Shown: positions 8,801-29,756 of the stretch, one piece after another
How the letters are laid out: each line of letters opens with the position of its first letter
How positions within the stretch are numbered: position 1 is the stretch's first letter
Assembly: GCA_963675665.1 (NCBI GenBank)
Contig: OY776510.1
Span: forward strand, 1 to 64,000
DNA: 64,000 bases
Direction: 5' to 3'
Source of the DNA: Spirochaetia bacterium
GTDB lineage: Bacteria; Spirochaetota; Spirochaetia; UBA9216
The notes under the pieces: model-generated
What the model was told of the DNA's origin: nothing
Seen by the model: the letters and a program-made list of their open reading frames with translations, nothing else
The model's database searches: none
Translations under genes and position numbers: made by a program

Positions 8801-9345
8801 TCCTTGTACTTGACACCGAGGTTTACTCAAATACCGGCGGCCAGGCATCCAAAGCTACGCCGATTGCGGCAGTTGCCAAATTTGCCAATGCAGGCATGCA
8901 GCTTACAAAAAAAAACATGGGCTTCATGTGTATGAGCTACGGCTATGTTTATGTAGCATCAATTGCAATGGGCGCAAACAGGGCCCAGGCTCAGAAGGCA
9001 ATCATGGAAGCTGAAGCATACGACGGACCTTCAATCATCTTTGCTTACGCTCCGTGTATCAACCACGGTATTGATATGTCCAAATCACAGCTTGAAGAAA
9101 AGCGTGCAGTAGATTCAGGCTACTGGCCTCTGTACCGCTACAACCCGGCTGCCGAAGAAGGCAAGAAATTCACATGGGAAACAAAAGACCCGACAGAATC
9201 CTTCCAGGACTTCATCAGAAGTGAAAGACGCTACACAGCGCTTCAGACAACCAACCCTGAACACGCTGAAGAACTCTTCGCAAGGGCTGAAGAAGACGCT
9301 AAAAAGAGGATGGCTTTCTACAAGAAGCTTGGGGATATAATGTAA
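5821..9345 (+). CDS. nifJ: pyruvate:ferredoxin (flavodoxin) oxidoreductase
   Basis: IYPITPSS, QSEAGAAG, FWGLGSDGTVGANK, two 4Fe-4S motifs (CIQCNQC, CQGCGVC), GACAGCGE, GGDGWAYDIG TPP motif. Confidence 0.97.
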   Translation: MANKKMVTIDGNTAAAHVAYAFSEVAAIYPITPSSPMGEYSDSWASTGRKNIFDKKVDVIEMQSEAGAAGAVHGTLSGGALTTTFTASQGLLLMIPNMHKIAGEMLPTVFHVSARSLAHQSLSIFGDHSDVMSTRNTGFAMTAAASIQETMDMALVAHLATLKSEVPFLSFFDGFRTSHEIMKVEEISYEDMATLVEPEYIERFRNRAMRPEAPIIKVAAQNPDVYFQGRETTNLYYDKVPAIVQEYMDKVAKLTGRQYHLFDYVGAPDAEKIIIAMGSGCDTIDITVKAMIAAGEKVGAIKVRLYRPFSAEAFVAAIPASVKKIAVLDRTKEPGSLGEPLYLDVKAVLAGKDIEVIGGRYGLSSKEFTPNHVKAVFTHLDGAAFNGFTVGIKDDVSNKSIEVKDDMKAVPEDVVSCMFWGLGSDGTVGANKNSIKIIGDNTEMNAQGYFDYDSKKSGGITISHLRFGKSPVNFPWLITKADFVACSNPSYIGRYDMLGPLKEGGVFLLNSVVPADEVFYHLTEAEQKIMIDRKINFYCMNAYDVAAEVGLGNRTNTLMQAAFFKISGILPEQEAIDLMKAAVKKTFIKKGEDIVKMNWNAIDKAAEALQKVEVPSSLPGKYYTAPQLIADDADDFAKNVIDKVMHLKGNDIPVSQMSIDGTLPSGTTKLEKRGVAPRVPNWINDNCIQCNQCVQSCPHAAIRAKMIEGDKMSGAPDTFDAVDYKAAKGADLKYKIQVFVEDCQGCGVCIETCPAKTKALEWSTIEAEREAGENANEAFFETLPYGAIDGSSEDNVKGMQFRQPLFEFSGACAGCGETPYVKLVTQVCGDRMIVANATGCSSIYGGTFPTIPYCKNELGRGPAWGNSLFEDNAEYGFGMRLAVDSNRTLLKVNVDKALKLGVSGGLAGALKAQMDIWTANDAAAIEGQKNLGELVKAEAGKATGELKPVLAKIAELKDYFVDKSVWIFGGDGWAYDIGYSGVDHVCAMGKNVNILVLDTEVYSNTGGQASKATPIAAVAKFANAGMQLTKKNMGFMCMSYGYVYVASIAMGANRAQAQKAIMEAEAYDGPSIIFAYAPCINHGIDMSKSQLEEKRAVDSGYWPLYRYNPAAEEGKKFTWETKDPTESFQDFIRSERRYTALQTTNPEHAEELFARAEEDAKKRMAFYKKLGDIM

Positions 9346-9537
9346 TTTAGCCTCCGGCTAAATTACATTTTGGAGTTTTGCCTTCGGCGAAACGTCCATA
9401 ATATTTAATTCCGATAACGGGCCGTGCATCATCGGGTGTGCGGCCTTTTTATTTGGCCATACTACAGCTTGACAAATTTTGCCACTGATTTCCACGAATG
9501 AATATTGGGTATACGCAAGGCAGAGATTATTAAGAAA
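8923..9537 (+). repeat. left copy of ~615-bp imperfect direct repeat (por 3' end plus downstream ~190 bp)
   Basis: aligns by eye to 29141-29756 from TTCATGTG to TTAAGAAA, with scattered mostly synonymous differences. Confidence 0.95.
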
Positions 9538-9762
9538 ATATGTTTAGCAGTAACTTAACATTGATTGACTACTTAAACTTTTATCTTTCATTTTTTTACG
9601 TAAGAATATGAAGGTTACATACGTATTAAAACTATTCCGCCCTGCCTGCCTTTGCCCTATTCAGATTTGTGGACTGCTTCTTTGCTCTACCCTAACATCA
9701 GTAGCCAAAATAATATGTTACAGTTTATAGCCACAAAATCCTGTTACTCCTTCAGATTTTTC

Positions 9763-9847
9763 ATTTTACACTCCGTTTTCCGATTCTCAAGGGCAAGACA
9801 AGTAAAATGGCTGCGCCATTTCCCCCTTGACAATCAGAAAAGCGGAG
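9763..9847 (-). promoter_or_regulatory. conserved hairpin upstream of GxxExxY copy 1 (putative ssDNA promoter)
   Basis: CTCCGTTTTCCGATTCTCAAGGG pairs with CCCTTGACAATCAGAAAAGCGGAG; inner TGGC-GCA-GCCA hairpin on the minus strand; TTGAGA-N16-TAAAAT on the minus strand. Confidence 0.6.
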
Positions 9848-9882
9848 CTGTCGCTGGAATGTGAAATTTCAGGAGGTACAGT

Positions 9883-10248
9883 ATGGTTCTGTATAAAGAG
9901 TTAAGTTATCAAATTATAGGCTGCTGCATGCAGGTACACAAAGGGCTCGGTTGCGGCCTGCTTGAGCAGTGTTATCACAACGCTCTTTATTTTGAGCTTA
10001 AGGAAGCAGGATTTCAGGTGCGTTATAATGCTCCGTATGAGGTAAAATATAAAGGCAATACCGTCGGTGAATATCTTGCCGACCTTGTCGTTGAGGGAAA
10101 AATTATCCTTGACCTGAAGTCCGTAAAACAATTGGCAGAGACTCATCAGGCGCAGTTAATCAATTATCTGCGCATTTCCGGTTGCCGTGTAGGTTACCTG
10201 CTTAATTTTCAGACCTGCAGGCTTGAGTTTCAGCGGTTTGTGGTGTGA
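9883..10248 (+). CDS. GxxExxY protein (PD-(D/E)XK nuclease-like), copy 1
   Basis: GLLEQCY, ADLVVEGKIILDLK, AQLINYL, GYLLNF; AGGAGG RBS. Confidence 0.92.
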   Translation: MVLYKELSYQIIGCCMQVHKGLGCGLLEQCYHNALYFELKEAGFQVRYNAPYEVKYKGNTVGEYLADLVVEGKIILDLKSVKQLAETHQAQLINYLRISGCRVGYLLNFQTCRLEFQRFVV

Positions 10249-10255
10249 GCCCTTA

Positions 10256-10795
10256 TTATGTCAAATCAAGATCAAAGACATCAAGAGCTTTTCCATCGCC
10301 CTCCCATTCAAGGGTTCCTTTGCATTTATGGCACCACCAGATTGTTTTAAGATATTTTTTCTCAACAAGCGTCGGGATTTGATCATAGAACTTTTTATTG
10401 TCCGGATACAGTTCGCTGTAAAAGTGATACAGCCCTTTTGTCCTTTTTCTGCCGTTACAACTCTTACAGACAAGAACCTGATTGTGAATTGCCTGGATAT
10501 GTTCACAAGTGGGGCACCGTTCGTTGATTTTCAGGGATTTCGGTATAATATGTTCCCGTTACAAATCTTCTTCGGTGCCACAGTAGGCGCATCTTCTTTC
10601 GGCATTTACAAGCTGTTTATCCTCCCGCAGGATCTAGGACCATTTAATCTCATTATCACGAAGCTCCCGGAATTTCACCTTAACAAATCCGTATAATTTC
10701 TTCTTTGCATCAGCCCCAATTGCACTTCTTGCGATGACCTTTGCATACTGGTAATAGATTAGATCTTTTATTGTCTTAACTTCTTTATCAGGCAA
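10256..10795 (-). pseudogene. HNH endonuclease pseudogene with two in-frame stops
   Basis: hand translation MPDKEVKTIKDLIYYQYAK...KWS*ILRED...CAYCGTEEDL*REHIIPKS...NQVLVCKSCNGRK; TAG at 10634-10636, TAA at 10559-10561. Confidence 0.85.
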
Positions 10796-10818
10796 GGTTT
10801 ACTCTATAACTTCATATA

Positions 10819-13665
10819 TCAAGCTGCTATTATTCCGTTAATAAATGTTTCGACAAAACCGAGGAGTTTTGCTGTTATTCGTTCTGCCGTGGTCTTGCGT
10901 TCCTTCAGAGCAGGGCGATTGTTCATCACTCCGATTATATCATCACGAAGCGGAACTTTTTCGGTAAACAGATAATTACCGATAAGCTCCTGGAGCCTGG
11001 CAGGTTCGATATCTTCCTCAAGTCCGATTTGTTGCAGGGCAAGAAGCTGTTCTTTATCCCAAAAAATCTGGAACGCCTCAGGGATATCGTCGGAATCTGC
11101 GATGAACGTAAGATTCTCGTTTATGAATTTCTCTATAAGCTCGCGCTTACTGCGCATATGAGCATCACCGGCAAGCAGATCAATGATTACTTTTTTCTGT
11201 TTTTCATACTCGCCTTCGTCGGCGTCTTTAAGATTAGCCAGCAGTTTCAGGATATAGGCTACGTTTATTTCATCACGGTGGATAAGCTCAAGCTCGAAAT
11301 CTATATCGTTGAGAATTGAGACCTTTTCCTTCTGATTATAGCCCTTCGCCTTATCATAGAGGTCCAGATACTTGCTCTTGTAATCTTCAAAACGCTGCTC
11401 GTCCATGGATAGATCACCAAAGCTGAATTGGGTAAAGGTTTTAAGCACGTTCCGGATGCGCATCAGCTCGCGGAAGATCTTTATAAACTCAAGCGCGGCA
11501 TTTTCATCGGGAAGATTGTTGACGCTGTCCACCGTGGGTGCAATCTTCAAGAGCTCAATATAAGCCTCATTAAACTTTCCGACATATTCTTCATAAGGCT
11601 GCATGATGATAATATCTTTGGCGTCCTTATTTGCAAATAGCGCTATTGCATCATCCGTAGCCTTCTTCAGATTTCTGAAACAGACTATATTACCCTGAGA
11701 CTTTAATTCATTGAGTATTCGGTTGGTACGGGAGTAGGCCTGAAGCAATCCGTGGTATTTAAGATTCTTATCCACAAAGAGGGTGTTAAGGTTTTTGCTG
11801 TCGAAGCCGGTGAGAAACATATTAACCACCAGGAGCAGATCAATTTGCCGGTGTTTAACCCGTTTGGCAAGATCATTGTAATAGTTATAGAAACTCTTGC
11901 TGTCGCGGGTGGTGAAGTTGGTACCGAACTGAGAGTTGTAATCGCCGATAAACTCCTCAAGCGAATCGCGGGAATGCTGATTCACAGGCCCGGCATCGGC
12001 CGCAAGGGCGTTACAGTCATCATCGATAAAAACACCCACGGCATCCTTATCATCCTCGTTTGCAGCATAGGAAAAGATAGTAGCCACCCTGAGGTTGTGC
12101 TCGCCTTTCTCTTTTTTAAGCCTGAACAGATGGTAATACTCGATAAGAACATCAATACTCTGCACCGCGAAGACAGCCGTAAACTCGCGGTTGTGAGTCT
12201 TGCGCCCGTGATTGGCGATTATGTAGTCAGTAATAATGTTCAGACGAGGCGGAGCATTCATTACCTCGGCACGGTCTATATCCTCAACCTCAATATCGAA
12301 AATATGCTCCTTCTTTTTAAAGGTACGGATATATTCGATGGAAAACTTAAGGACATTCTCATCACGGATGGCATCGGTAATAACATAGCGGTGAAGCATC
12401 TTGTCGAACAGCATCGACGTGGTGCGCTTGCCGTATTCGTTCGTACCCGCGTTCTCTTTAAAGATAGGCGTACCCGTAAAACCGAACATCTGACAGCTTC
12501 CGAAGAAACGCTTGATATCCTCATGCGTCTTACCGAACTGCGAACGATGACACTCGTCAAAGATAAAAACAACCCGCTTGTCTTTTAACGCCCCCATCCT
12601 GCCCAGATACTTCTTCTTACTGATGGCCGTGTTCAGCTTCTGTATAGTAGTGACAATGAGTTTATTATCACCCGCCATCTGCTTAACCAAAGTCTCTGTG
12701 TTATTCGTGCCGTCGATGCTCCCTTTGCTGAAGCTGTTGAACTCTTTGGTAGTCTGATAATCAAGATCCTTGCGATCGACTACAAAGACAACCTTGTGAA
12801 CCTTTGGAGAGCGCGTAAGAATCTGCGCAGTCTTGAATGAGGTAAGCGTCTTACCCGAACCCGTCGTATGCCAGATATAACCGTTTTTAACCGTCGTCTC
12901 AACCCGCTCAATAATAGCCTCGACCGCATAAAACTGATAAGGCCTGAGCACCATCAGGATCTTCTGCGACTCATTAAGAACCACATAGCGCGTAATCATC
13001 TTTGAGATATGACAGGGCTCAAGAAAGACATCGGCAAAATCGGAAAGCTGGGAGACAATTTTGTTGTTCACATCGGACCAGTAAAAAGTCTGCTTGAACG
13101 AACGCGCCTTTACCGGACCGTTGGCATAATACTTGGTATTCACCCCGTTACTGATTACAAAAATCTGAATAAACTGAAAAAGCCCCTGCCCCGCCGAATA
13201 CGAATGCCGCTCATAGCGGTTGGTCTGATTGAAGGCCTCCTTAAGCTCAAGCCCCCGCCGTTTAAGTTCAATCTGCACCAGCGGCAGACCGTTAAAAAGG
13301 AGCGTAACATCATAGCGGTTCCTGTAAGCATCCTCCATAGTAACCTGCCGCGTAACCTGAAACTCATTCTTGCACCACTGAAGCTGATTAATAAGCTCGA
13401 CCGTCTTATGCTCGCCCTCCTCGTTAATGTAAGGTACACGATCACGCAGGATCTTAGCCCGCTCAAAGATATTACCCTTGCTTATGTAGTTGAGGATCTG
13501 CTTAAAATCATTATCAGAAAGCTCAGTCTTATTATGAACCTCAAGCTGAACCCTGAGATTGGCAAGCAGCTCAGCCTCGTCCCTGACGACGACCTGCTTA
13601 TAGCCCAAACCGCACAACTGCTTTACAAGAGCATCCTCAAGAATAACCTCGGGCTGGGTAGTCAT
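10819..13665 (-). CDS. hsdR: type I restriction endonuclease subunit R
   Basis: YDVTLLFNGLPLVQIELK, WHTTGSGKT, DECHR, GFTGTP, MFLTGFD, QAYSRTNR; ATG overlaps the hsdS stop (TAATG). Confidence 0.96.
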   Translation of the reverse strand: MTTQPEVILEDALVKQLCGLGYKQVVVRDEAELLANLRVQLEVHNKTELSDNDFKQILNYISKGNIFERAKILRDRVPYINEEGEHKTVELINQLQWCKNEFQVTRQVTMEDAYRNRYDVTLLFNGLPLVQIELKRRGLELKEAFNQTNRYERHSYSAGQGLFQFIQIFVISNGVNTKYYANGPVKARSFKQTFYWSDVNNKIVSQLSDFADVFLEPCHISKMITRYVVLNESQKILMVLRPYQFYAVEAIIERVETTVKNGYIWHTTGSGKTLTSFKTAQILTRSPKVHKVVFVVDRKDLDYQTTKEFNSFSKGSIDGTNNTETLVKQMAGDNKLIVTTIQKLNTAISKKKYLGRMGALKDKRVVFIFDECHRSQFGKTHEDIKRFFGSCQMFGFTGTPIFKENAGTNEYGKRTTSMLFDKMLHRYVITDAIRDENVLKFSIEYIRTFKKKEHIFDIEVEDIDRAEVMNAPPRLNIITDYIIANHGRKTHNREFTAVFAVQSIDVLIEYYHLFRLKKEKGEHNLRVATIFSYAANEDDKDAVGVFIDDDCNALAADAGPVNQHSRDSLEEFIGDYNSQFGTNFTTRDSKSFYNYYNDLAKRVKHRQIDLLLVVNMFLTGFDSKNLNTLFVDKNLKYHGLLQAYSRTNRILNELKSQGNIVCFRNLKKATDDAIALFANKDAKDIIIMQPYEEYVGKFNEAYIELLKIAPTVDSVNNLPDENAALEFIKIFRELMRIRNVLKTFTQFSFGDLSMDEQRFEDYKSKYLDLYDKAKGYNQKEKVSILNDIDFELELIHRDEINVAYILKLLANLKDADEGEYEKQKKVIIDLLAGDAHMRSKRELIEKFINENLTFIADSDDIPEAFQIFWDKEQLLALQQIGLEEDIEPARLQELIGNYLFTEKVPLRDDIIGVMNNRPALKERKTTAERITAKLLGFVETFINGIIAA

Positions 13666-14867
13666 TACACAAACATCCTCTGAAGCAACCAATTTTTCCA
13701 GCTCTGAGACAACTCAATCTGTGAAGCAACCTGTTCGATAGCTCTGTCGATGGAGGAGAGGAAGGAAGCGATCTTTTGCTGTTCGGGGAGTGAGGGGATA
13801 AAAAATTTTAATGTTCGAAGATCATTTCCGGTAAATCCCTTGATAGATGTACCCTGAGCCAGTCGAATAAATCTACCTGAAAATGCACTGAAATAATAAG
13901 CCAGAAACCACGGATTCTCATTTGTTATCATATTGGTAAAATCCTGACTCGTACAAAGGTCTTGGCTTGAAACCGCGAATTTTCCGATCCCGACCCTCGA
14001 AACAATTAAAACACTATTTTTAGGAATAATCTTTGTTGCTGACTCCTTAACAGCCTTGCCCGTAATAAATCTTGTAATATTTATTTTAGAAATCGAATTC
14101 TCACATAAATCTGAACTGGAAATCCACGGGACATCACCCTTCCAATACTCTTCGTTTGTACTATCAGGAGTTCCGCCTCCAATGAATGAACCAATATCAC
14201 CCAGCTTTTTCTCTTCCCAATCAGGGAAATCATTATCGTTTTCATCCTTGAAGCGCAATTTCTGAGAGAAAATCTTCTGCATGATGCCTTTTTTGTATTG
14301 CTCCAGTGCTTCTTTCTTTTTCTGCAGCAGGCTGACACGTTTATCCACTGCGGTAAGGAAAACGGCTATGCGGGTTTGTTCGGGGAGTGTGGGGAATTTA
14401 AATCTACAATTAGAAAAATCTGTTTTATTAATTTGAGGAACAGCTTGGACTCCTGCAAGGAGTTTAATCCTTTTGCCATTTTTTAATAGTATAAAGTAAA
14501 TAAAATCATCGATATATTGTTTATGAGCTTCTAATGCATTTATCTGTTGATTAGTCACAGAGTTACAAGATGTCTGACCAACTTTGCCAATTGTTGAACC
14601 TATGGAGACAAAGAGCGTACTATTCTTCTTTATAATTCGTCCATTTCTAAAGCCTGCTTCTGTTAATGTAGTTTTAGTGGTTTCTATGTATCTACCGTTA
14701 TTTAGGTCCACAGGAGATATAAACAAATAGTCACCATCATAAAATTCTTTCACAGATGTTGGGGGAGTACTTCCCGTCGTTATTTTAGATATTTCCCCTA
14801 ATCTTTTCTCTTCCCACTCTCCTTCAAATCCTGGGAATCTCAGCCGGGGCACATTCTTATTGTTCAT
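13665..14867 (-). CDS. hsdS: type I R-M specificity subunit
   Basis: VPRLRFPGF, two WEEKxLG TRD starts, PTLPEQ/PSLPEQQKIA, LLQRMFV. Confidence 0.95.
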   Translation of the reverse strand: MNNKNVPRLRFPGFEGEWEEKRLGEISKITTGSTPPTSVKEFYDGDYLFISPVDLNNGRYIETTKTTLTEAGFRNGRIIKKNSTLFVSIGSTIGKVGQTSCNSVTNQQINALEAHKQYIDDFIYFILLKNGKRIKLLAGVQAVPQINKTDFSNCRFKFPTLPEQTRIAVFLTAVDKRVSLLQKKKEALEQYKKGIMQKIFSQKLRFKDENDNDFPDWEEKKLGDIGSFIGGGTPDSTNEEYWKGDVPWISSSDLCENSISKINITRFITGKAVKESATKIIPKNSVLIVSRVGIGKFAVSSQDLCTSQDFTNMITNENPWFLAYYFSAFSGRFIRLAQGTSIKGFTGNDLRTLKFFIPSLPEQQKIASFLSSIDRAIEQVASQIELSQSWKNWLLQRMFV

Positions 14868-15140
14868 CCATCATTCTCGTTTTTTCGAATATTTGGGGAA
14901 GGATAATCCGTGGCCATACCTGCGACGCTGATTTTTCCTCTTAGGGGGTTGTCCATGCCCCATAAATAGGCTTCAGGTACTTGTTTTTGGTCTTTAAACA
15001 TAGTTTAATCCCTTTGAATGATGGCTAATTATATCGTTGATGGGTATGATTGGGAAGAATAAAATCATTATGAAAAAGAAAAGACATTGCTTACAAGCTG
15101 ATTGTTTCTATTGATTTAAAACCTTAAATGTGAAAAATCA

Positions 15141-16148
15141 TTATTTTGAAATAATTCCATAGATTCTATTATCTAGTCTGATCGCAGAAATAAAGACATT
15201 GTAATCAGGCAATGATTTCCCATCACTAGTTCTCCATATTTTTGCATTTTCTATATCAAAACAGGTATTTCCAGTTTGAAATGTATTATATACACAACTT
15301 TCTAAAGGGACTCGCATGTTTTTGAATAAACACAGATTGGATTCAGAAGCAGCCTGATTGCGGGCTTGGGGAATCACCCTTAATGCTAATGTCTCAGGAC
15401 GATTATCCATCTTCATTCTCATTTCAGCAATGAAGATTAGGGTCGGATGAGTACAAAATTTTACTATTCCATTTGCTGTAGATAGTAAACTAGCAGTAGG
15501 GGCAAAATTTTCTCGGATCGAATTAACAATATCAAATGTCAAGTTGTTTTTTATTGATCCACGAAGATGGTGTCTGAGTAGATCCGGATAGAAAGCAAGA
15601 TTTCCAGCAATTTTATCCATTAGTCTTTCAATAGGATTTGTTCTAATAATTTCATCTCTCCTATATGGCAAGACTAGTTGTGGCGGTTCAGCTATACGGT
15701 GTGCGAATTCATGAAACCTGTTCCAATATGCTCTATATTCAGTATGTGTTAAGTTAAGTACTGCAACCCAACGGTCATTATCATCAGAAGCGGCATGCAT
15801 CCTTTGAAATAACCATGCATCGATATTCGGTTTATGTATTTCCTTTCTTACTTGAGTAAATCCTATTTCTTTCTTTTGTTTTAGATAACGAGACTCAAAG
15901 GTTTCTAGATCCTGGTCATTACGGAGTTCCTCGACCTTTACCTGGAAACTTTCGGCAATTTCATTAGCAAAGATTTCCCCTTTAGGTTTAATACCGATAG
16001 CAAATGGACGAACCATTTTTACACATGCGTCAATAATTTCTTTATCTTGTTCAACACAATTGCTCCATTCTTTACCAACATTGAGGTTTTTTACTATTGC
16101 GTCGAGTCTTAATCCATCTTCAATTGTAACATTGTATCTGTTTTCCAT
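15141..16148 (-). CDS. ImmA/IrrE-like zinc metallopeptidase (CapP-like)
   Basis: HEFAH zincin motif followed by ExxMDxxA; directly downstream of an XRE HTH gene. Confidence 0.72.
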   Translation of the reverse strand: MENRYNVTIEDGLRLDAIVKNLNVGKEWSNCVEQDKEIIDACVKMVRPFAIGIKPKGEIFANEIAESFQVKVEELRNDQDLETFESRYLKQKKEIGFTQVRKEIHKPNIDAWLFQRMHAASDDNDRWVAVLNLTHTEYRAYWNRFHEFAHRIAEPPQLVLPYRRDEIIRTNPIERLMDKIAGNLAFYPDLLRHHLRGSIKNNLTFDIVNSIRENFAPTASLLSTANGIVKFCTHPTLIFIAEMRMKMDNRPETLALRVIPQARNQAASESNLCLFKNMRVPLESCVYNTFQTGNTCFDIENAKIWRTSDGKSLPDYNVFISAIRLDNRIYGIISK

Positions 16149-16151
16149 ATA

Positions 16152-16583
16152 TCATTCCTTAAGAAAGGGCTTTACACTTTCATAAAAACTGATCCATTCG
16201 TTTTCACTCCATTCCGGTTCATTATTAGTTGATCGTCTTCCTACTAATGTTTTTTGACCCCTATAAATTTGTATTGTCGTTGAGAATTTAAGATTCAATT
16301 TTTCAGCAGCTTTTGAAAGTGCTATTGGAATATTAATAGTATTTTTATTGTCATCGTTATCAGTAGAAGGAGATAAAATCTCCTGAAGCGGGACCCTCAG
16401 AGCTTCTGCTAATCTATTCAGTTTTTCTCCAGAAATGTTTGAAAGTCCTCTTTCAACTTCTGACAAGTATGCAGGGCTGATATTACTCATTTTGGCCAGA
16501 GCGCTTCCTGTTAATCCTTTTTCTGTTCGTAATTTTCTTATATTTAACCCAATTTTTAACTTTAACTCGTCTTTTTCAGACAT
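16152..16583 (-). CDS. XRE-family HTH regulator (CapH-like)
   Basis: IRKLRTEKGLT..LA..SNISPAYLSEVERG; start moved to ATG 16583 after AGGAG. Confidence 0.85.
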   Translation of the reverse strand: MSEKDELKLKIGLNIRKLRTEKGLTGSALAKMSNISPAYLSEVERGLSNISGEKLNRLAEALRVPLQEILSPSTDNDDNKNTINIPIALSKAAEKLNLKFSTTIQIYRGQKTLVGRRSTNNEPEWSENEWISFYESVKPFLKE

Positions 16584-16599
16584 ATCTACTCCTTTTTTC

Positions 16600-16635
16600 T
16601 TGACAAAGTTCGGTATATCGTATATATTCGGTATA
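16600..16635 (+). promoter_or_regulatory. promoter of the Ubl operon with overlapping direct repeats (candidate operator)
   Basis: TTGACA-N17-TATATT; TTCGGTATA at 16609 and 16627. Confidence 0.6.
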
Positions 16636-16708
16636 ACAGATTTTAAATCTGTGGTATATGTTATTTTACGCCATACCATATTTTATGTCAAGGAATTTGG
16701 AGGTTCAA

Positions 16709-16960
16709 ATGAAACCTGAAAAAGACAAGATTTACGAGATAATTGTAAATGCAAAGAAAGTTCAAGTAGACCATAAAAGGGTCTCCTTTGAAGAAATTGT
16801 GATTATAGCTTTTGGTTCGTACACGCCATCGGAAACGGTAATTTATACTGTTACCTTCAGCAAAGGTGAGCATGGGCATGAAGGATCACTAGTTGCTGGT
16901 AAAACAGTCAATGTAAAAGATGGGATGGTGTTTAATGTCAAACAAACTAATAAGTCATAA
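16709..16960 (+). CDS. multiubiquitin-domain ubiquitin-like protein
   Basis: 83 aa, IIVN..VSFEEIV..YTVTF..GSL..G..V.VKDGMVFNV pattern; GGAGG RBS. Confidence 0.8.
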   Translation: MKPEKDKIYEIIVNAKKVQVDHKRVSFEEIVIIAFGSYTPSETVIYTVTFSKGEHGHEGSLVAGKTVNVKDGMVFNVKQTNKS

Positions 16961-20918: not shown

Positions 20919-21937
20919 CATTTAACTCCTTTTACCTTTGTTCCAAGACGATCCATAGCACTCTTTATTCTATCAGCATGTATTCCGAATTTACTAAAAT
21001 CTTTCGTATCTAAAAACTCCCTAAGAATATATTCTATATTTTCAAGATTATATATATTTTCTCGTATACTATTTAGTGCAATTTGTTTTTCTGTAGTCTG
21101 AATTCCCCATTTTAAAAAACCATAATTATGTGGATATATACAGGTGTTATCGTAGTACGAATAACGCAACCAGGTTAATCCATCAAAAATCTCTGCTCCT
21201 GCTAAAAAATATAAACACACACTAATAGGATCTAAAGCTCCGAAAATATGTAATGGAGCACTTATAGATGCTTCATCAAGTGCCTTCCTAACACGTGAAA
21301 TATTTACCATACGATCTAAAATAGATGGACCTAACTCTTTTTCTGTTAATCCAATAATATCAAATTTGCTAAACCTATCGATGTTTATTATTATTTTCTT
21401 GATAACATCATCTTTTAATTTATTATCATTCTCGCTTTCAGGTTTTATTAAGAACAAATTTAACTGGTCAGAATAATTACTAAATATATCCAAGGCAATT
21501 TCAATCTGATCTTCAAGGCTTTTTCTCTCTTTAGGATTATCATAGCTAACGAAAACACTTGAATACTCTTTCGGCCAATTTGCCAGAACTTCTTTATATA
21601 GTTGCACATTCCATTTTTTGGCTTTAACTGGTACATGAACTACTGTCGAATAATCATCTGTTTCAGAAACCTCATAACCACCGCTATCTAGAAAGAAAAG
21701 CTCTGGAATTGTTTCAAGCTTTAAAGGTTCAGTAATATATTTATAATAAATATCATATGCACTCACAAGGCAAGCTTTTGTAAAAAACTCACTTGCAACA
21801 TGATAAATTTTATCAATTCCTTTTTTACCTGACACCTTAAAATTAAAACCTTTACTTGAGAAAGAAGGTATCAGCAATGGAGTGTTTACTTTAAGTCCAC
21901 TTGCTTTATGATGAATATTTGAACTTCTTGCAATCAT
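20918..21937 (-). CDS. TGT (tRNA-guanine transglycosylase)-like protein (Cap10-like)
   Basis: TPLLIPS, FFLDSGGYE, LHIFGAL, AGAEIFDG. Confidence 0.8.
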   Translation of the reverse strand: MIARSSNIHHKASGLKVNTPLLIPSFSSKGFNFKVSGKKGIDKIYHVASEFFTKACLVSAYDIYYKYITEPLKLETIPELFFLDSGGYEVSETDDYSTVVHVPVKAKKWNVQLYKEVLANWPKEYSSVFVSYDNPKERKSLEDQIEIALDIFSNYSDQLNLFLIKPESENDNKLKDDVIKKIIINIDRFSKFDIIGLTEKELGPSILDRMVNISRVRKALDEASISAPLHIFGALDPISVCLYFLAGAEIFDGLTWLRYSYYDNTCIYPHNYGFLKWGIQTTEKQIALNSIRENIYNLENIEYILREFLDTKDFSKFGIHADRIKSAMDRLGTKVKGVK

Positions 21938-22481
21938 ACAGATACTCCAAATCTTTACAACTTCGACATTTACCACATGGTTGCTGCAACCCCAACTCGC
22001 AACTATATGTCTTATAACGATTTAGCTTATTTTTAATAAAGTAATTATAAATTTCTAATTTATCCCAGTTTAAAAAAGGTGCAACAAAGGTCAATCGGCC
22101 CGAACTATAGTTATTAACTATTTCTTTTGCCACTTTATAAAAATCAGGTGAACAATCATAATATGAAGTACCGGAATGAATGCCCATAGCAATAATCCCT
22201 TTGTTATGTCCTTCCATTAAAGCCGCACTTAATAGAAATAAATTGCGCCCCAAAATCTCGCCAGAGTGTAAAGTGATATTATTTTTATATTCACAAATTT
22301 TTAGAGGTATTTCCATCTCTTTTGCTATTTGAAGAACAGTTGACCGTTCCTGTTTATTGCTTAATTGCCCATAATCTACAAATAACAAATTACGTGAGTA
22401 TTCTTCCCCTGAGAATATATGAACACAAGAAGTAGAGTCTAATCCTCCACTAAATAGAATTGTTACATTTACTTTTTCCAC
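21906..22481 (-). CDS. QueC-family ATP pyrophosphatase (Cap9-like)
   Basis: LFSGGLDS, VDYGQ, GRN, YYDCS, TYSC..PCGKCRSC. Confidence 0.9.
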   Translation of the reverse strand: MEKVNVTILFSGGLDSTSCVHIFSGEEYSRNLLFVDYGQLSNKQERSTVLQIAKEMEIPLKICEYKNNITLHSGEILGRNLFLLSAALMEGHNKGIIAMGIHSGTSYYDCSPDFYKVAKEIVNNYSSGRLTFVAPFLNWDKLEIYNYFIKNKLNRYKTYSCELGLQQPCGKCRSCKDLEYLYDCKKFKYSS

Positions 22482-22711
22482 TTCCTCTTCCTATTAAAAA
22501 TAATCAAAGGAACATTATATTTATAAAATTACTCAATAATATCATATACCTTAATAAATTTCGACCATTTTTAGTATTTGATAAACCTTGTCACAACGAT
22601 AACTAACATCTAAACAACTATCAACTCATCACATTCTTACTCATATTTCATTGCCTCACAACAACTTACACCCAATCCGCGGCCTCCTAAATCCGTGGCA
22701 AAACAACTCTC

Positions 22712-23077
22712 CTACACCACAAACCGCTTAAAAACAACCCTTGCACCCTGAAAATTAACCAGATACCCCACCCTGCACTTGCTTATATGAAGATAGTTAA
22801 TAAGCTGCGCCTCATGCATACCCGAAAGAGCCTTAACAGCCTTAATTTCAATAATAACCCGATTATCAACAGCCAAATCAGCAAAAAACTCACCCACCTG
22901 CTGCCCCCGATAAAAAACATTAAGCGGAGCATTATAAACAACATTTAACCCCAAAGACCTTAACTCATAATACAAAGCATTATAATAACAAGACTCAAGC
23001 AACCCCGACTTCAACTCATTATGAACGCTGAAAAACCCACCCACGATTTTATTAGACAACTCTTCAAACAACAGCAT
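22712..23077 (-). CDS. GxxExxY protein, copy 2
   Basis: GLLESCY, ADLAVDNRVIIEIK, EAQLINYL, GYLVNF; AGGAGG RBS. Confidence 0.92.
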   Translation of the reverse strand: MLLFEELSNKIVGGFFSVHNELKSGLLESCYYNALYYELRSLGLNVVYNAPLNVFYRGQQVGEFFADLAVDNRVIIEIKAVKALSGMHEAQLINYLHISKCRVGYLVNFQGARVVFKRFVV

Positions 23078-23107
23078 AACCTGCCTCCTTTTTTCTTAAA
23101 AAGACAG

Positions 23108-23196
23108 CAGGCTTGCAGTGACGAGCAGTCAAGGGTAAAAATGGCATAGCCATTTTACTCGCCTTGCCCTTGACGGCGAGGAGCGAAAGGTATAAT
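23108..23196 (+). promoter_or_regulatory. conserved hairpin upstream of GxxExxY copy 2 (putative ssDNA promoter)
   Basis: GTGACGAGCAGTCAAGGG / CCCTTGACGGCGAGGAGC stem, inner AAAATGGC-ATA-GCCATTTT; TTGACG-N15-TATAAT on the 3' arm. Confidence 0.6.
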
Positions 23197-23535
23197 GAAA
23201 AAACCCGGAGGCAGATAAGATATTTTCACCCAAAAGCGTAAACAAAAAGAAATATCGCTTCGCGGCTGCTAGTTTAAGCGAGACTATAGGGATTAACGCA
23301 GGCCGTGTTACCCGCGTGCTTTACCCCGGCCATCCGTGGCAAACAACCTCTTCCTGAAGAAATTCAACCACGAAATCCCAGATATTACGTAACATTTATA
23401 GAATTTTTCACGTAGAAGGATACATCTAAAAAACTGTTTTGAAATTATATACATGCCCATCTGATAATATAAAAACACACTTCGATTTGCTATAAATCCG
23501 TGGCTCTCTTCATCCGTGGCAAATAAACTCTAATT

Positions 23536-23919
23536 CTATATCTCTTCGATTTTGCCATTAATAGGCAACATTAAAGATTTACCACGTGAGACTTTAGTTT
23601 TGATTTCATCCCATCTTCTCAATAATTTCCATGATAAATCCCAGAAACTCTGATCTTTCCAACCCTTTTTCATGAAAACAATCGGCAAACCAGACTCTTG
23701 CCAAGCTAAAAATTCATGCGGATTTCTTTTAATATTTCGATCTTTAGTAATTATAAAACATCCGTCAATTTTTGAAAGTTCATTAATCCATTCTATATCT
23801 TTCGTTGCAGGCGGAAACATTTCCCGTAAATGCTTCACCTGAACTCCGGACCTGCCCTCTAACTCGTTGAAAGCTTTAGAAATTCTTGGGGGAAGATTTT
23901 CATCAAAGATACACGTCAT
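23536..23919 (-). CDS. PIN-like toxin (VapC45-like)
   Basis: FDENLP, KDIEWI, IITKDRNI. Confidence 0.8.
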   Translation of the reverse strand: MTCIFDENLPPRISKAFNELEGRSGVQVKHLREMFPPATKDIEWINELSKIDGCFIITKDRNIKRNPHEFLAWQESGLPIVFMKKGWKDQSFWDLSWKLLRRWDEIKTKVSRGKSLMLPINGKIEEI

Positions 23920-24593
23920 GCAACCAGTCTCATTTCAAAATCAATAGCCATATCAATATACTTTAAATCAATATCATACCAATCCGAGATATCTTTTTTA
24001 GTATGACCGGAATTATATAGATCCATTATCATTTCAGTGCTGACATTAATATCGTCAATAATAGGCTTTCCAAAATTTCTGGAAGGATCAATAACAATTC
24101 CGCTATCCTTTCCCAACGGCCACCATTTCTCTGCAATTTCATAATTGTTGAAATCTATGCATTCATACAGAGTAGGTAAAATAATCTCCGCAAATTGATA
24201 CTGTTTTTTTAATAAATCTATTAATTCTATTGAATCTGATTCTTTAGCTATCTTTGCAATGATCGTTTTGCCGTCAGTGTATATTTTTTTCATAGCAAAA
24301 GGATGCTCGGAATTTAACAACCTTGAGGCGCTTTCTATAGCGACCCGAATTGTCTGGATGCTTATTCCATATTGGTGAAAAGCCTTGATAAATAGAATTT
24401 CAATAATATCCAGAAAACTTAAAACCTTTTTCGAATCAATCTTATCATAATCTGAATCAAATACAGGTTGAATTTCATTATTAGAGTCTGAGCGCTTATA
24501 ACCTTCCGACCATCTCCTGATTTTGATCAGGCTTAGACCTGTTAGATGAGAAACCTCTTTATATGTATATAATCCATTACCGATATAGTTCAT
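23916..24593 (-). CDS. HTH plus DUF433 antitoxin-like protein
   Basis: GLYTYKEVSHL..IRRW, LSFLDIIE, IVIDPSRNFGKPII; overlaps the PIN gene start. Confidence 0.8.
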   Translation of the reverse strand: MNYIGNGLYTYKEVSHLTGLSLIKIRRWSEGYKRSDSNNEIQPVFDSDYDKIDSKKVLSFLDIIEILFIKAFHQYGISIQTIRVAIESASRLLNSEHPFAMKKIYTDGKTIIAKIAKESDSIELIDLLKKQYQFAEIILPTLYECIDFNNYEIAEKWWPLGKDSGIVIDPSRNFGKPIIDDINVSTEMIMDLYNSGHTKKDISDWYDIDLKYIDMAIDFEMRLVA

Positions 24594-24781
24594 TTATCCA
24601 CCTTCATGGCCATTTTTTCTATTATATTTTATAAATCGTCTTAATATTACATAATTATAATCCAGATTACCGCCATACGTATAGAACAATTTTGTCCAAG
24701 CACTGTGTTACCCGACTGTTCCACTACATATATCCGTGGTCTCAAAATCCGTTGCTAAATACTAAAAATAAGGATTAGGCC

Positions 24782-24959
24782 CCTACACCACAAACCGCTT
24801 AAACACAACCCTTGAACCCTGAAAATTAACCAGATACCCCACCCGGCACTTGCTTATATGAAGATAGTTAATAAGCTGCGCCTCATGCATACCCGAAAGA
24901 GCCTTAACAGCCTTAATTTCAATAATTACCCGATTATCAACAGCCAGATCAGCAAAAAA
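24782..24959 (-). pseudogene. 3' half of a GxxExxY gene, near-identical to 22711-22888
   Basis: ~178-bp direct repeat with few mismatches; 5' half of the gene and the hairpin are absent. Confidence 0.88.
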
Positions 24960-25145
24960 TATAAGGAAAAGTCCTGGAGGTAGACAACATATTAGCGCCC
25001 GAAACCATAAACAAAAAGATAAATCCGTAGTTTTCTTTATCGGTTCGCGGCGACTATTTTAGTCAACCTATTGGGCTTAACGCCGCCTGTAACCAATTAC
25101 TCTGCTCTCATTAGCTCTTGACTGATAATCTAAAGTTGATTCAGA

Positions 25146-25637
25146 CTATGGTTGAAAAACAAACCGGACTCTTTCCCGTCTGAGCAGATCAAATGTGTTA
25201 ATATACGGAATATTCATTGCAATACAAACATTTGGGATTTTTACCTTTTTTCGGCTTTCTCCAGGAGTTTCAAGCGTTACAACGGTATGCCCGCCGGCAA
25301 GAGCCTGCGCACAAAGATAATAATCAGCTATCTGGAGAAATTGCATAACAGCAGCCTGATCATAATCTCCGCTGTTCACCCATAAACTGATATTCTGTAA
25401 AGTCGCTACATCCAACTGTTGAGGCTGTAGAAAAAAATCCGCAGGCAGTGAATGAACCCAATCAACCAGTTCATCTTCTCCGGCAATGATCTCATCTTTT
25501 ACTTTGGATACGCTGAAAACCTGATTCCCATCATGTGCTTCCCTCAACCAAGTCCAGAACCCCGGACAAAAATCCATACCGTAATATAGATTTTTTGCAG
25601 CTATAAGCACATTAGAATCAAGTAAATACGCCATCAA
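25146..25637 (-). CDS. DUF4411-family PIN-like protein
   Basis: YLLDSNVLI, FCPGFWTWL, ADYYL, VVTLE, KIPNVC. Confidence 0.85.
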   Translation of the reverse strand: MMAYLLDSNVLIAAKNLYYGMDFCPGFWTWLREAHDGNQVFSVSKVKDEIIAGEDELVDWVHSLPADFFLQPQQLDVATLQNISLWVNSGDYDQAAVMQFLQIADYYLCAQALAGGHTVVTLETPGESRKKVKIPNVCIAMNIPYINTFDLLRRERVRFVFQP

Positions 25638-26791
25638 CCATAGACCTCAAGCTTGTGGCTCATGGCTCTGAAAGTCTCCATATTCTTCATACCCAGCATT
25701 CTCATAGCCTCAGTAAAAGGAGTAATGCCCTCCCAGGTACTGCTTATAATAGCCTTTGCGAACCTGTGCCCGGTACGAACAAGGGTGCTGTTATAATAAT
25801 CGCCGCCTGTACTCCTCCCCTGGCGCTTAATACTAAGCAATCTTTCCAACTCTGAATTATAAGCAGTTCGATATCCCGAAAAAGAAAGAATCCCTATATC
25901 AAATAATCTTCTGAGGATTACAAGAGTACTCACTTTAAAAAAACGAGCGAGAATTTTCACCTCATCCGCTAATGGCAGATCATTACGGCGTTGTTCCTGT
26001 AATTCAGAAATAGGTACAAGAAACTCTGCAGCAACCTTGTTACACCATAGCTCAGTAGATTCAGAAGAAGGTTCAAGACTGACATCACTCAAACCCGAAC
26101 TGCCCAGCCATAGATGAGCAAGTTCATGAATAATAGTAAAAATCTGGGCAGCCTTTGTATCCGCTCCATTCACAAAGATCACCGGAGCATATTCATCCGC
26201 AATTGCAAAACCTCTGAACTCTTCCGGATTCAGAATCCGATGAGTATTGCTGCCGACAATACCATTAATAAATACAAGCACACCATACTCTTCAATTTTC
26301 TCTCTTAAAAAACGCAACATCTCAGAGAAAGTACTTACTCTACTACGAGCATAGGCATTAATTCCAAGTTGATCTTTGATATCAACAGCAACAAGGGCAG
26401 GATCATCAGCAGTAGTTACGGAACCGACGAAGGGAAAAGCGTCAAAACCTTCGCCACGTGCATATTCCCGATACCAGGATTGTCTCAACTGTGCGGAATA
26501 AACGACCTCAAGAAGGTCCGGAGACGGCTCTGCTTGCTCCTCACCGGCCATCCTTCTGAAATCAGGTATTGGTAACTCTAATCTGGGGGGGGTAGAAAGA
26601 TAGAGGAACCCGACAGGAGTATGAGTAGCGTTTGAAATCTTCTCGAGTTGCTTAAAAGTGGGGAATATATCACCGGAAAGCCATTCATTCCACTTCGGGA
26701 ATAAATGATAGAGTCGTTCATCAGTTATCCCCGATCGCTGAGCAGCCCAGGTTAAAACTTCCGGTGTTACCGGCACGCGTGTGACAGCCAT
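25634..26791 (-). CDS. HTH plus ImmA/IrrE metallopeptidase
   Basis: PTFKQLEK HTH, PDFR, EFRGFA, FTIIHELAH, ELWCNKVAAEFL. Confidence 0.88.
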   Translation of the reverse strand: MAVTRVPVTPEVLTWAAQRSGITDERLYHLFPKWNEWLSGDIFPTFKQLEKISNATHTPVGFLYLSTPPRLELPIPDFRRMAGEEQAEPSPDLLEVVYSAQLRQSWYREYARGEGFDAFPFVGSVTTADDPALVAVDIKDQLGINAYARSRVSTFSEMLRFLREKIEEYGVLVFINGIVGSNTHRILNPEEFRGFAIADEYAPVIFVNGADTKAAQIFTIIHELAHLWLGSSGLSDVSLEPSSESTELWCNKVAAEFLVPISELQEQRRNDLPLADEVKILARFFKVSTLVILRRLFDIGILSFSGYRTAYNSELERLLSIKRQGRSTGGDYYNSTLVRTGHRFAKAIISSTWEGITPFTEAMRMLGMKNMETFRAMSHKLEVYG

Positions 26792-26864
26792 TACTTTTCA
26801 ATTACTCCTGAAAATAAGTATATCTTAACCGTTTACAATCAACAACAATATTCCATACCAGTCA

Positions 26865-28442
26865 TTACATTTTAAACGGTACAGTTATACCAAGCTCTTT
26901 ACAGTAGCCAGCTATCTCTTCATTAACCTCTTCAAGCTCATTCTCAATATCTACCAACGATACCGCAACAGCATCAAGATCAACCGGCTCCTCCTCTTCA
27001 AAGGTATCAACATAGCGCGGGATATTCAGATTGTAATCATTCTCGGCGATCTCGGACAAAGCAGCAGCATATGAATACTTGTCCTTAGTTTCACGAGAAC
27101 GAAAGGTCGAAACAATCTCTTCAACATCGCTGTCCCGAAGTGCATTCTGATTACCCTCTTTTACAAAATGCCCGTCTCCGCTTGCATCAATGAAGATGAT
27201 ATTATCATCAGACTTCCTGCACTTCTTGAATACAAGGATACAGGTAGGGATGGATGTACCGTAAAAAATGTTCGCCGGCAGCCCTATTACTGCATCAAGA
27301 AAATTAAGCTCCTTAATCAGATACTCCCTTATTACGCCCTCGGCAGCGCCTCTGAACAGAACACCGTGCGGAAGCACAGTAGCCATAATGCCGTTATCAG
27401 CGAGCTGATGGATCATGTGCAGAACAAATGCATAATCAGCCTTGGTCTTCGGCGCCAATTTACCGTATCGGCTGAAGCGTTCATCGGAGCTGTACAGCGG
27501 GTTTGCATCACCCTTCCAGTGGGCGGAGAACGGCGGATTAGCGACAACAGCCTCAAAGCGTTTATCAAGGTGCTGAGGATTTTCAAGGGTATCCTCGTGC
27601 CTTATATCAAAATTACGATAGTGAACATCATGCAGGATCATATTCATCCGAGCGAGGTTGTAGGTAGTCCGGTTCTGCTCCTGACCGAAAAACTCGCTGA
27701 CATCATCCACCTCGCGGGCGACTCGTAGAAGAAGAGAACCCGAACCGCAGGTAGGATCATACACCGATTTAAGCCTGCGCTTTCCGGTGGTAACAACCTT
27801 TGCCAGGATCTTCGAAACCTGCTGGGGCGTATAAAACTCTCCGGCCGACTTGCCCGCCCCAGCGGCGAACTTACCTATTAAATATTCATAAGCATCACCG
27901 AGAACGTCAGAATCAACCTCTTTCAACTTGAAATCTATCTTATCAAGATTTACAAGGATTTTAACGATTATCTCGTTTCGGGCTCCTACCGTACGTCCAA
28001 TCTTGGTGGAGTTAAGATCAAGATCCTCAAACAGGGCGTTAAAATCATCCTCCGATTCGGTTCCCATGGTGCTCTGCTCTATATGGTTCATGATCGCCTG
28101 AAGATCTTCGAGAATATAATTGCTTTCGTTCTCGGTATCGGAACTGCCGCGCTTGGCAAGCTCTGAAAAAAGCTCATGCGGCTGCAGGAAATATCCCAGC
28201 TTTAAAAGCGATTCTTCTTTTATTACTTCAAGGGTTTCAGGATCTTTCACATCCCTGTAATCGGTTACCTCTTCGCCCACTAATAGTTCATTGACGTAAA
28301 GATACTGTTTCTCACTGAGATATTTATAAAAAATAAAACCGAGTATGTAGTCACGGTAATCATCAGCACTGATCTTCCCCCGAAGCAGGTTGGCTATGCC
28401 CCATAATTGTTTTTCAAGCAGTTGTTTTTGATCATCAGACAT
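26865..28442 (-). CDS. hsdM: type I R-M methyltransferase subunit (N6-adenine)
   Basis: LWGIANLLRG, GDAYEYLI, GEFYTP, YDPTCGSGSLL, ANPPF, LPHGVLFRG, YNLNIPRYVD. Confidence 0.97.
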   Translation of the reverse strand: MSDDQKQLLEKQLWGIANLLRGKISADDYRDYILGFIFYKYLSEKQYLYVNELLVGEEVTDYRDVKDPETLEVIKEESLLKLGYFLQPHELFSELAKRGSSDTENESNYILEDLQAIMNHIEQSTMGTESEDDFNALFEDLDLNSTKIGRTVGARNEIIVKILVNLDKIDFKLKEVDSDVLGDAYEYLIGKFAAGAGKSAGEFYTPQQVSKILAKVVTTGKRRLKSVYDPTCGSGSLLLRVAREVDDVSEFFGQEQNRTTYNLARMNMILHDVHYRNFDIRHEDTLENPQHLDKRFEAVVANPPFSAHWKGDANPLYSSDERFSRYGKLAPKTKADYAFVLHMIHQLADNGIMATVLPHGVLFRGAAEGVIREYLIKELNFLDAVIGLPANIFYGTSIPTCILVFKKCRKSDDNIIFIDASGDGHFVKEGNQNALRDSDVEEIVSTFRSRETKDKYSYAAALSEIAENDYNLNIPRYVDTFEEEEPVDLDAVAVSLVDIENELEEVNEEIAGYCKELGITVPFKM

Positions 28443-28548
28443 GGTGGAATTATATCCTTCAGGGATTTGAATGTATAGAAGTTTTTTAACCGGGGCCTAC
28501 ACTCAGATAAATTCTTGCTGATCAAAACCGTTAATATGACAAGCTCCC

Positions 28549-28920
28549 CTACACCACCAAACGCCGCCAAACGACACGCCTGCCGTTAAAATTAACCAGG
28601 TAACCGACTTCAAGACCTGACAACCGCAGATAGTTAAGCAGCTGTGCTTCCATTGCAGGAGTAAACTCTTTAACAGATTTAAGTTCTAATATTATTTTGC
28701 CTTCAACGACCATATCAGCAATATAGGCAGCCGCTAGCTCACCACGATAGTAAACCGGATAAACATGCTGTCTGCTGATTTCAAGCCCGCGATGCTTAAA
28801 CTCTATAACTAAAGCACCTTCATAAGCTGATTCCAATAATCCGGGCCCCAGGGAATTATGTACCGCAAACACAGCACCCAACACCTGATTTGATAATTCA
28901 TTTTCAATTAACTCTGACAT
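28549..28920 (-). CDS. GxxExxY protein, copy 3
   Basis: LGPGLLESAYE, ADMVVEGKIILELK, EAQLLNYL; start moved to ATG 28920 after AGGAGG. Confidence 0.92.
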   Translation of the reverse strand: MSELIENELSNQVLGAVFAVHNSLGPGLLESAYEGALVIEFKHRGLEISRQHVYPVYYRGELAAAYIADMVVEGKIILELKSVKEFTPAMEAQLLNYLRLSGLEVGYLVNFNGRRVVWRRLVV

Positions 28921-28947
28921 ACGCAGCCTCCTGTTTTTGAAAACAGG

Positions 28948-29039
28948 AACCTTCAAGTGACGAGTAGTCAAGGGACGAAAACAGCGAAGCTGATTTTCGT
29001 CTTGCCTTGCCCTTGACGACGAGGAACGGAGGTTACAAT
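28948..29039 (+). promoter_or_regulatory. conserved hairpin upstream of GxxExxY copy 3 (putative ssDNA promoter)
   Basis: AACCTTC-AA-GTGACGAGTAGTCAAGG / CCTTGACGACGAGGAACGGAGGTT stem, inner GACGAAAACAGC-GAA-GCTGATTTTCGTC; TTGACG-N15-TACAAT. Confidence 0.62.
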
Positions 29040-29140
29040 TAAAAAACCTGGAGACTGTAAAGACATATCAATCCAAAACAATGATTTGTAAATCTTCCCT
29101 ATCTTCTTCATCAGTGGTTCAATAACTTTCTTCATCTTTA

Positions 29141-29756
29141 TTCATGTGCATGAGCTACGGCTATGTTTACGTAGCATCAATTGCTTTGGGCGCCAACAGG
29201 GCACAGGCCCAGAAAGCCATCATGGAAGCCGAAGCATACGACGGACCTTCAATCATCTTTGCTTACGCTCCGTGTATCAACCACGGTATTGATATGTCCA
29301 AATCACAGCTTGAAGAAAAGCGTGCGGTAGATTCAGGATACTGGCCTCTGTACCGCTACAACCCGGCTGCCGAAGAAGGCAAGAAGTTCACCTGGGAAAC
29401 CAAGGACCCGACCGCTTCATACCAGGACTTCATCAGAAGTGAAAGACGCTACACAGCGCTTCAGACAACCAACCCTGAACACGCTGAAGAACTCTTCGCA
29501 AGGGCTGAAGAAGACGCCAAAAAGAGGATGGCTTTCTACAAGAAGCTTGGGGATATAATGTAAGACTTTTATCTCCGATAAAAGTCTTCAGGAGTTTCGC
29601 CTTCGGCGAAACGTCCATAATATTTAATTCCGATAACGGGCCGTGCATCATCGGGTGTGCGGCCTTTTTATTTGGCCATACTACTGCTTGACAAATTTTG
29701 CCACTGATTTCCACGAATAAATATTGGGTATACGCAAGGCAGAGATTATTAAGAAA
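29141..29756 (+). repeat. right copy of the ~615-bp direct repeat
   Basis: matches 8923-9537. Confidence 0.95.
29144..29563 (+). pseudogene. nifJ: 5'-truncated por fragment (last 139 codons)
   Basis: nearly identical to the por C-terminus (IALG vs IAMG, TASY vs TESF); no RBS. Confidence 0.9.

Follow-up and report, generated by a model that had tools for sequence, protein, structure and literature searches.

A displaced por tail beyond a defence-gene block in a Spirochaetia bacterium, possibly left by one-sided recombination

The genome of a Spirochaetia bacterium (GTDB UBA9216; assembly GCA_963675665.1, contig OY776510.1) is a single contig of 5.15 Mb, and the window analysed here is its first 64 kb. 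Within the window, por, encoding pyruvate:ferredoxin/flavodoxin oxidoreductase (POR), is followed by an island of defence genes (38.1% G+C versus 43.3% for the genome), at the far end of which the 3' end of por is found a second time. Judged from their substitutions, the two por tails are alleles of different lineages, both of which diverged while functional. There is about an even chance that the second tail is the scar of one-sided, homology-anchored recombination with DNA of a related lineage, and that the repeats are not the ends of a new self-mobile element. An earlier note on this DNA had instead proposed that the island entered as a circle or fragment carrying a foreign por allele.

Two alleles of the por tail

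Self-BLAST of the window gave one long direct repeat (8923-9604 versus 29141-29822; 687 columns, 90.5%, E=0), the final ~65 bp of which (to 9604/29822) are only weakly alike in the alignment. Its core, 8923-9537 versus 29141-29756, aligns over 618 columns with 93.5% identity, bearing out the earlier description of a por repeat ~20 kb apart with M/L and TESF/TASY changes. Two copies are present in the whole genome, also when short queries were used, and the por at 5806..9345 was the only full-length gene of its type found genome-wide by tblastn. The coding part of the repeat is 423 bp, comprising POR residues 1040-1179 and the stop codon. It differs between the copies at 22 positions in 21 codons, 18 of which are synonymous, the others being M/L and the E/A and F/Y changes that turn TESF into TASY. 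Since only 21-25% of changes would be expected to be synonymous in a dead fragment (P 3e-10 to 9e-9), both tails diverged while functional.

The first ~26 bp past the stop form two different hairpins, one per copy. That of the left copy (9340-9368) resembles those of the congeners G005 and G008, and that of the right copy (29558-29590) those of G003 and G004; the right tail has L, TASY and the hairpin type in common with G003. Beyond the hairpins, 9372-9537 and 29591-29756 differ at 3 of 166 bases. Differences between the copies are clustered (P=0.0003) and leave stretches of 96 and 95 bp without any change, a pattern suggesting that the alleles have recombined. Ten distant relatives used to polarise the copies gave mixed tallies that slightly favoured the left, these relatives being too diverged.

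Mis-assembly of two strains is unlikely because, in the probable source sample (X4), a contig with no differences from the assembly runs from the island into 120 bp of right-copy alleles, and because the node into which the repeat collapses has a greater depth than the contigs of the island (26.7 versus 9.6-14.9 in X4; 36.9 versus 25-28 in X5). Left por alleles are on separate contigs of the probable source sample (X4, X5). Island depth in X5 (25-28) is not below that of the flanks (22-24.5), and depth in X4 is uneven (por contig 23.8, island 9.6-14.9, right flank 11.3) and not readable as excision. Short-read contigs collapse the middle of the repeat and long-range phasing rests on the one-contig assembly, of whose own sample the probable source sample is not independent.

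It had also been noted that no recombinase, transposase or relaxase is visible between the copies, and hidden Markov model searches agree. None of the 20 open reading frames there matched these families (Pfam on all 20; NCBIfam on 17), nor did 18 further stop-to-stop frames over the island gaps match recombinase families. All seven tyrosine-recombinase matches of the genome lie at 2.6-4.5 Mb, far from the island, and two serine-recombinase families had no match genome-wide. A tblastn search of the window with the genome's own seven integrase domains revealed no integrase remnant (best E 0.026), and none of 90 por loci of relatives matched these domains. The scan that gave the por repeat also detected, as a control, a classical tRNA-Pro repeat of 53 bp next to integrase matches at 2.60-2.62 Mb. 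Outside the island, an IS4-family transposase gene is located at 45475-46632. Elsewhere in the genome a large array of ~130-bp repeats with insertion sequence copies (G000:C1:4416000-4526300) and an adjacent tyrosine recombinase (4525671) is consistent with a chromosomal integron.

The region downstream of por in relatives

A sister lineage, B, is represented by contigs from runs X7-X9 of one mixed sample (S6). Two of these (15.9 and 18.9 kb) track the window through por to 9877 and again over a gene of the GxxExxY family (9918-10213), past which they run for 11.4 and 5.7 kb unlike the island. In the congener G003, a 66-bp remnant of the leader of such a gene is found downstream of por. As lineage B shares por and GxxExxY with other DNA after them, and G003 keeps the leader remnant, the link between por and GxxExxY is, by these comparisons, older than the defence cargo. 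This sharing of the left end of the island weakens the earlier reading of the island as an incoming circle.

Upstream of por (4500-5849), lineage B differs from the window at 32 of 1350 bp (97.6% identity), and over 5820-9877 it is 96.5% identical, with no drop upstream of 8923. Five right-flank pieces carry 434 differences in 5750 bp (92.5%; Fisher P 3e-14 against the left flank). Gene rate alone does not explain this asymmetry, since the left-flank gene is the faster-evolving one (57% amino-acid identity in G003, versus 75% for the right-flank EAL gene). Of the 21 readable sites in the por tail, lineage B is of the left type at 15 and of the right type at 6. One lineage-B contig (depth 2.8) has a 42-bp por tail after 41152; this tail would begin at 29522 instead of 29141 and hints at a second breakpoint that differs from the first. 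Missing island cover in X7, X8, X9, X1 and X2 was not taken as absence.

In four of five congeners, orthologues of genes located at 41.5-44.7 kb of the window appear within 0.2-6 kb downstream of por; the contig of the fifth ends early after por. The variable interval in the window therefore measures ~32 kb and extends beyond the 20 kb between the repeats, a further point that weakens the earlier proposal. The number of genes inserted downstream of por is 0 (G005), 0 (G001), 1 (G003) and ~5 (G004). Congeners lack the accessory block beyond the repeats (29757..41517) in the interval from por to the next core gene, whereas parts of it occur in lineage B and marine metagenome X1. Gene content thus differs at the same core-gene interval across species and lineage B, the comparison being one between species. 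The earlier idea of por as a hotspot for swapping defence genes, to be checked by comparing the region across relatives, holds as far as DNA after por is variable; its defence part does not extend to the congeners, in which the inserts are not defence genes and no second por tail was found.

A class-wide search for the tail matched 297 of 401 genomes, and 18 besides this genome had at least two matches. No clear por-plus-tail pair was present in the 12 of these that were inspected, which contained full-length paralogues, a split gene (G182) or short weak matches on other contigs (G181, G405); the six multi-match genomes of genus g38 were left out of the inspection. Such a search misses tails shorter than ~30 codons, and draft genomes collapse repeats of this kind. 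The metagenome scan covered the best 80 of 519 loci with flanks of up to 10 kb, too short to reveal a tail at a distance of 20 kb. In one of the 80 loci (L074, 5113-5910), the 3' part of por directly follows unrelated genes, possibly on a chimeric contig. At L028:4529-6923, short repeats of por-downstream DNA recur past its por. Among the relatives compared, only this genome has defence cargo and a second tail beside por. A literature search, which did not cover subscription papers, found nothing on por as an attachment site.

Origin of the second tail

The favoured explanation begins with a long chromosome piece of a related lineage, which would have recombined by homology on one side. The other side would have been joined illegitimately, without homology, inside por at 29140/29141, giving one full por, the defence cargo and the orphaned tail of the other allele. 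Of the two arms, the left one (upstream genes, por, GxxExxY and cargo) is probably the one that came in, which would make the right copy the resident tail; the mirror case, with the right arm incoming, fits the same data. Later patchy conversion between the copies may have yielded the 95-96-bp identical patches. Excision of the island through these patches is plausible, as RecA could be predicted to loop it out, and the restriction-modification and toxin-antitoxin genes would then select against cells losing it.

An ancestry step at the junction is what one-sided recombination predicts, and the flank difference of 97.6% versus 92.5% in the mixed-sample contigs points that way. The predominance of synonymous and clustered differences, the failure to find a recombinase, and the shared por-GxxExxY segment followed by different DNA in lineage B also support it. 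Genes for recA, comEC and dprA are present in the genome.

Three more pairs of a full and a truncated gene, 10-11 kb apart and with no integrase match within, are found in the genome (986344/996300, 1036012/1046860 and 1715913/1727037). The first (986344-996707) is 95.6% identical, with 12 of the 14 differing codons among the first 100 synonymous, and the second (1036012-1047256) is 98.7% identical. In the third (1715913-1729465), a 1527-bp, 99.9% identical copy of a thiamine diphosphate (ThDP)-enzyme-like gene is truncated close to its end and continues in frame into a different reading frame, so that a chimera of 809 amino acids results. In addition, three whole-gene direct pairs flank sugar-use clusters (4900321-4912826, 2203726-2213839 and 1382585-1390694). 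The first of these has ~600 identical bases mid-gene and diverged edges, which suggests gene conversion, and other gene pairs in the genome show similar patchy identity.

Several points weigh against one-sided recombination. The flank asymmetry comes from low-depth contigs (depth 2-10) of a mixed sample; the left pieces are from X8/X9 and the right from X7, and they may represent two organisms. Right-flank pieces are mostly accessory genes, core gene accounting for only 306 bp. The 15-to-6 allele count is not significant alone (P=0.08) and its sites are clustered, and diagnostic sites do not separate cleanly against distant relatives. A repeated ~45-nt element starts 4 bp away from the join, a placement that a random join does not explain. 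Competence is not shown by comEC and dprA, both of them near-universal (10 and 11 of 14 control genomes). Microhomology at the join, a feature of homology-facilitated illegitimate recombination, would show only against the donor end. Finally, illegitimate events of this kind occur at frequencies orders of magnitude below that of ordinary recombination (PMC5361080).

Entry as a circle is doubtful. It would have carried a foreign por tail and the cargo and integrated by one RecA crossover inside the repeat, probably within 9372-9537, so that por is resident and the right fragment foreign. This predicts the layout exactly and suits the G003-like features of the right tail (L, TASY and hairpin type) and the closer likeness of the left tail to lineage B; a circle model has also been proposed for rhs tip displacement (PMC2935791). 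However, the outer flanks should then share one ancestry, whereas lineage B, in its mixed-sample contigs, is unequally similar to them. Furthermore, 9538-10213 should be incoming, yet lineage B has it and G003 keeps a remnant past por. No circle-forming machinery was found, and there is a single displaced tail genome-wide rather than an array. Of the earlier proposal, the involvement of two functional por alleles and the failure to find an integrase are upheld and homologous recombination is the likely route, while entry as a circle fits the flanks, as seen in mixed-sample contigs, less well.

It is unlikely that a site-specific element of the e14 or phage 21 type (e14 encodes an integrase) inserted at 8923 of por, supplied a replacement 3' end, lost its integrase and gathered defence genes. 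The layout and synonymous pattern are those of icd, e14 and icdC (PMC13626634), and because the icdC tail that e14 has displaced carries synonymous changes, the earlier premise that integrase elements duplicate short cores was too strong. Such cargo does travel on integrase elements, since a homologous operon (67% DNA identity) of the cyclic oligonucleotide-based antiphage signalling system (CBASS) sits in a tyrosine-integrase island of G010 beside tRNA-Lys/tRNA-Glu (L096, G010:C4:2146000-2165000). Decay within the island (the hsdM remnant, the deleted GxxExxY copy and the broken HNH-like gene) would also fit, and the 42-bp tail in lineage B has a length typical of attachment (att) cores. Against this, an integrase remnant is absent from all 38 frames searched and from the tblastn of the window, the 90 por loci of relatives gave no integrase-domain match, and a clear por-plus-tail pair was lacking in the 12 multi-match genomes inspected. 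After an att crossover at 8923, both outer flanks should be resident and equally B-like, unlike the 97.6% and 92.5% of the mixed-sample contigs; nor does the likeness to lineage B fall off upstream of that position. The lineage-B tail from 29522 rather than 29141 also hints at a breakpoint that is not fixed.

GxxExxY genes are found at both ends of the island and face inward, with four of the eight matches in the genome lying within it; matches are present in 10 of 11 family genomes. Their conserved leader, which contains an inverted repeat, occurs in the window at 9763-9883, 23077-23260 and 28920-29053 and at four other genome sites. The ~45-nt element, the conserved start of which is 4 bp from the junction, has copies in G001, G003 and G005 and twice elsewhere in this genome, and in the genus it is found downstream of gene ends and in the vicinity of GxxExxY genes. 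Both repeat copies contain a related motif towards their 3' end. In named Spirochaetales records, a looser motif scan placed the element at four loci, none with a por match nearby; a scan for the exact 28-nt motif gave no match. A marine-metagenome contig (X1) departs from the reference at 29141. This loose end was rejected as proof of an illegitimate join, as another copy of the ~45-nt element explains it equally.

From these features it might be supposed that GxxExxY proteins, which have a PD-(D/E)XK nuclease fold, cut at the neighbouring short repeat and supply the non-homologous side, the inward-facing GxxExxY units being the island ends. This is improbable. The orientation and number of GxxExxY genes in the island, the position of the junction, the departure of the X1 contig at 29141 and the motif in both copies all fit, but the idea is post hoc and concerns a single junction. 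The element normally follows gene ends, so the break may simply remove the upstream gene; by eye, no such element is present at the junctions of the three other truncated pairs, and the four copies in named genomes stand apart from por. Equally much of a long shot is the broader proposal that GxxExxY and the short repeats are an unrecognised DNA-end-making system, with por an integrase-free docking site re-used across lineages and RecA anchoring the other side.

Local duplication of the por tail followed by drift, or mis-assembly of two strains, is very improbable: although the centre of the repeat is collapsed in short-read contigs, a dead fragment that drifted should have about a quarter of its differences synonymous, not 18 of 21, and both the source-sample contig spanning the junction with right-copy alleles and the X5 island depth speak against mis-assembly.

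Gene content and known counterparts

The features of por, the island and the adjoining accessory block are listed in Table 1; those of the island include pairs resembling toxin-antitoxin systems. The type I restriction-modification operon is split, intact hsdM (26865-28442) being 12 kb away from hsdS and hsdR. The 5'-deleted GxxExxY copy (24782-24959) has 97% identity to 22711-22888. The CBASS genes presumably represent the type IV layout. Upstream of por, 478-2769 encodes a GAF-domain phosphoenolpyruvate-utilising enzyme (Pfam), which we take to be PtsP-like. An Rfam scan of the window gave no matches.

Table 1. Features of the por locus, the defence island and the block beyond it
Feature	Position	Strand	Basis
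por, intact, pyruvate:ferredoxin/flavodoxin oxidoreductase, 1179 amino acids	5806..9345	+	TIGR02176 1722 bits (cut-off 911); Pfam; tblastn
Left repeat copy: last 423 bp of por, hairpin, terminator-like stem, short intergenic repeat	8923..9537	+	
por-downstream spacer, GxxExxY leader, GxxExxY gene (9883-10248)	9538..10248	+	Contig comparison, NCBIfam
Small HNH-like gene, probably broken, two frames	10256..10798	-	HNH_4 E=0.017, weak, below cut-off
Type I restriction-modification hsdR (10819-13692), hsdS (13665-14867)	10819..14867	-	Pfam, PADLOC
Short remnant like hsdM 5' end, immediately upstream of hsdS	14928..15009	-	71% to 28369-28450
335-amino-acid open reading frame without assigned family; helix-turn-helix regulator	15141..16679	-	Pfam, NCBIfam
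Ubiquitin-like, DUF6791-ThiF(E1) and DUF6527 genes; bacterial ubiquitination-like operon	16658..18480	+	Pfam, NCBIfam
CBASS: QueC, TGT, cyclase, 2TM (two-transmembrane) effector, OGG	18805..22481	-	PADLOC; NCBIfam CBASS_cyclase_b above cut-off
GxxExxY gene, PIN/DUF433 pair, 5'-deleted GxxExxY copy (24782-24959)	22712..24959	-	Self-BLAST, Pfam
DUF4411, IrrE-like M78 peptidase protein, intact hsdM	25146..28442	-	Pfam, PADLOC, NCBIfam
GxxExxY gene and leader, pointing into island	28549..29053	-	Pfam, NCBIfam
~45-nt intergenic repeat	29092..29140	-	
Right repeat copy: 5'-truncated por tail (stop 29563), own hairpin, terminator-like stem (29638-29665), short repeat	29141..29756	+	
Accessory block beyond repeats: hicB-like antitoxin, extracytoplasmic function (ECF) sigma factor, redox genes, MFS (major facilitator superfamily), lipase, two cheX	29757..41517	.	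Pfam, relatives

In unconventional circularizable structures, cargo that lacks its own recombinase is enclosed by direct repeats. The H47 island has this arrangement, and its excision has been detected by polymerase chain reaction (PMC5426353); the por island has it as well, but its excision is a prediction. In e14/icd, too, an intact central-metabolism gene is followed by cargo and a 3' pseudogene fragment with mostly synonymous differences, and deletion would give a chimeric gene (PMC13626634). However, e14 is an excisable prophage, while no recombinase was found for the por island and its foreign-looking ancestry seems to reach outside the repeat.

The model for type VI secretion system arrays of Vibrio cholerae is homology-facilitated illegitimate recombination that displaces the end of the resident gene (PMC5361080). 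These arrays resemble por in having an upstream homology anchor, a non-homologous downstream join, an old 3' end shifted back and no integrase, but they are anchored in a toxin locus and gain an effector-immunity pair, whereas here a metabolic gene, ~20 kb of defence genes and a single tail are involved. Displacement of rhs C-termini by homologous recombination similarly leaves orphan tails of variable length downstream of an intact gene (PMC2935791); rhs tips are variable, reusable and arrayed, in contrast to the one near-identical fragment of por. Integrase-free hotspots of horizontal gene transfer share with por the variable content beside a core gene, the lack of a mobility protein and signs of recombination in the flanking gene, in the case of por a local mosaicism, although the model given for them relies on double crossovers and has no duplicated tail (PMC5635113). 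Fewer than half of the hotspots encode an integrase according to the same source, and partial tRNA duplication without an integrase has been described (PMC3119063).

The por case is thus a further instance of a kind of event already described, the defence block beside por with a second tail having been seen only here among the relatives compared. The gain is modest unless the link to GxxExxY holds. It is nevertheless a clean example of a large defence block beside a central metabolic gene with no mobility enzyme found, which integrase-based island finders would miss, and the mosaic of por alleles offers a handle on the direction and source of transfer.

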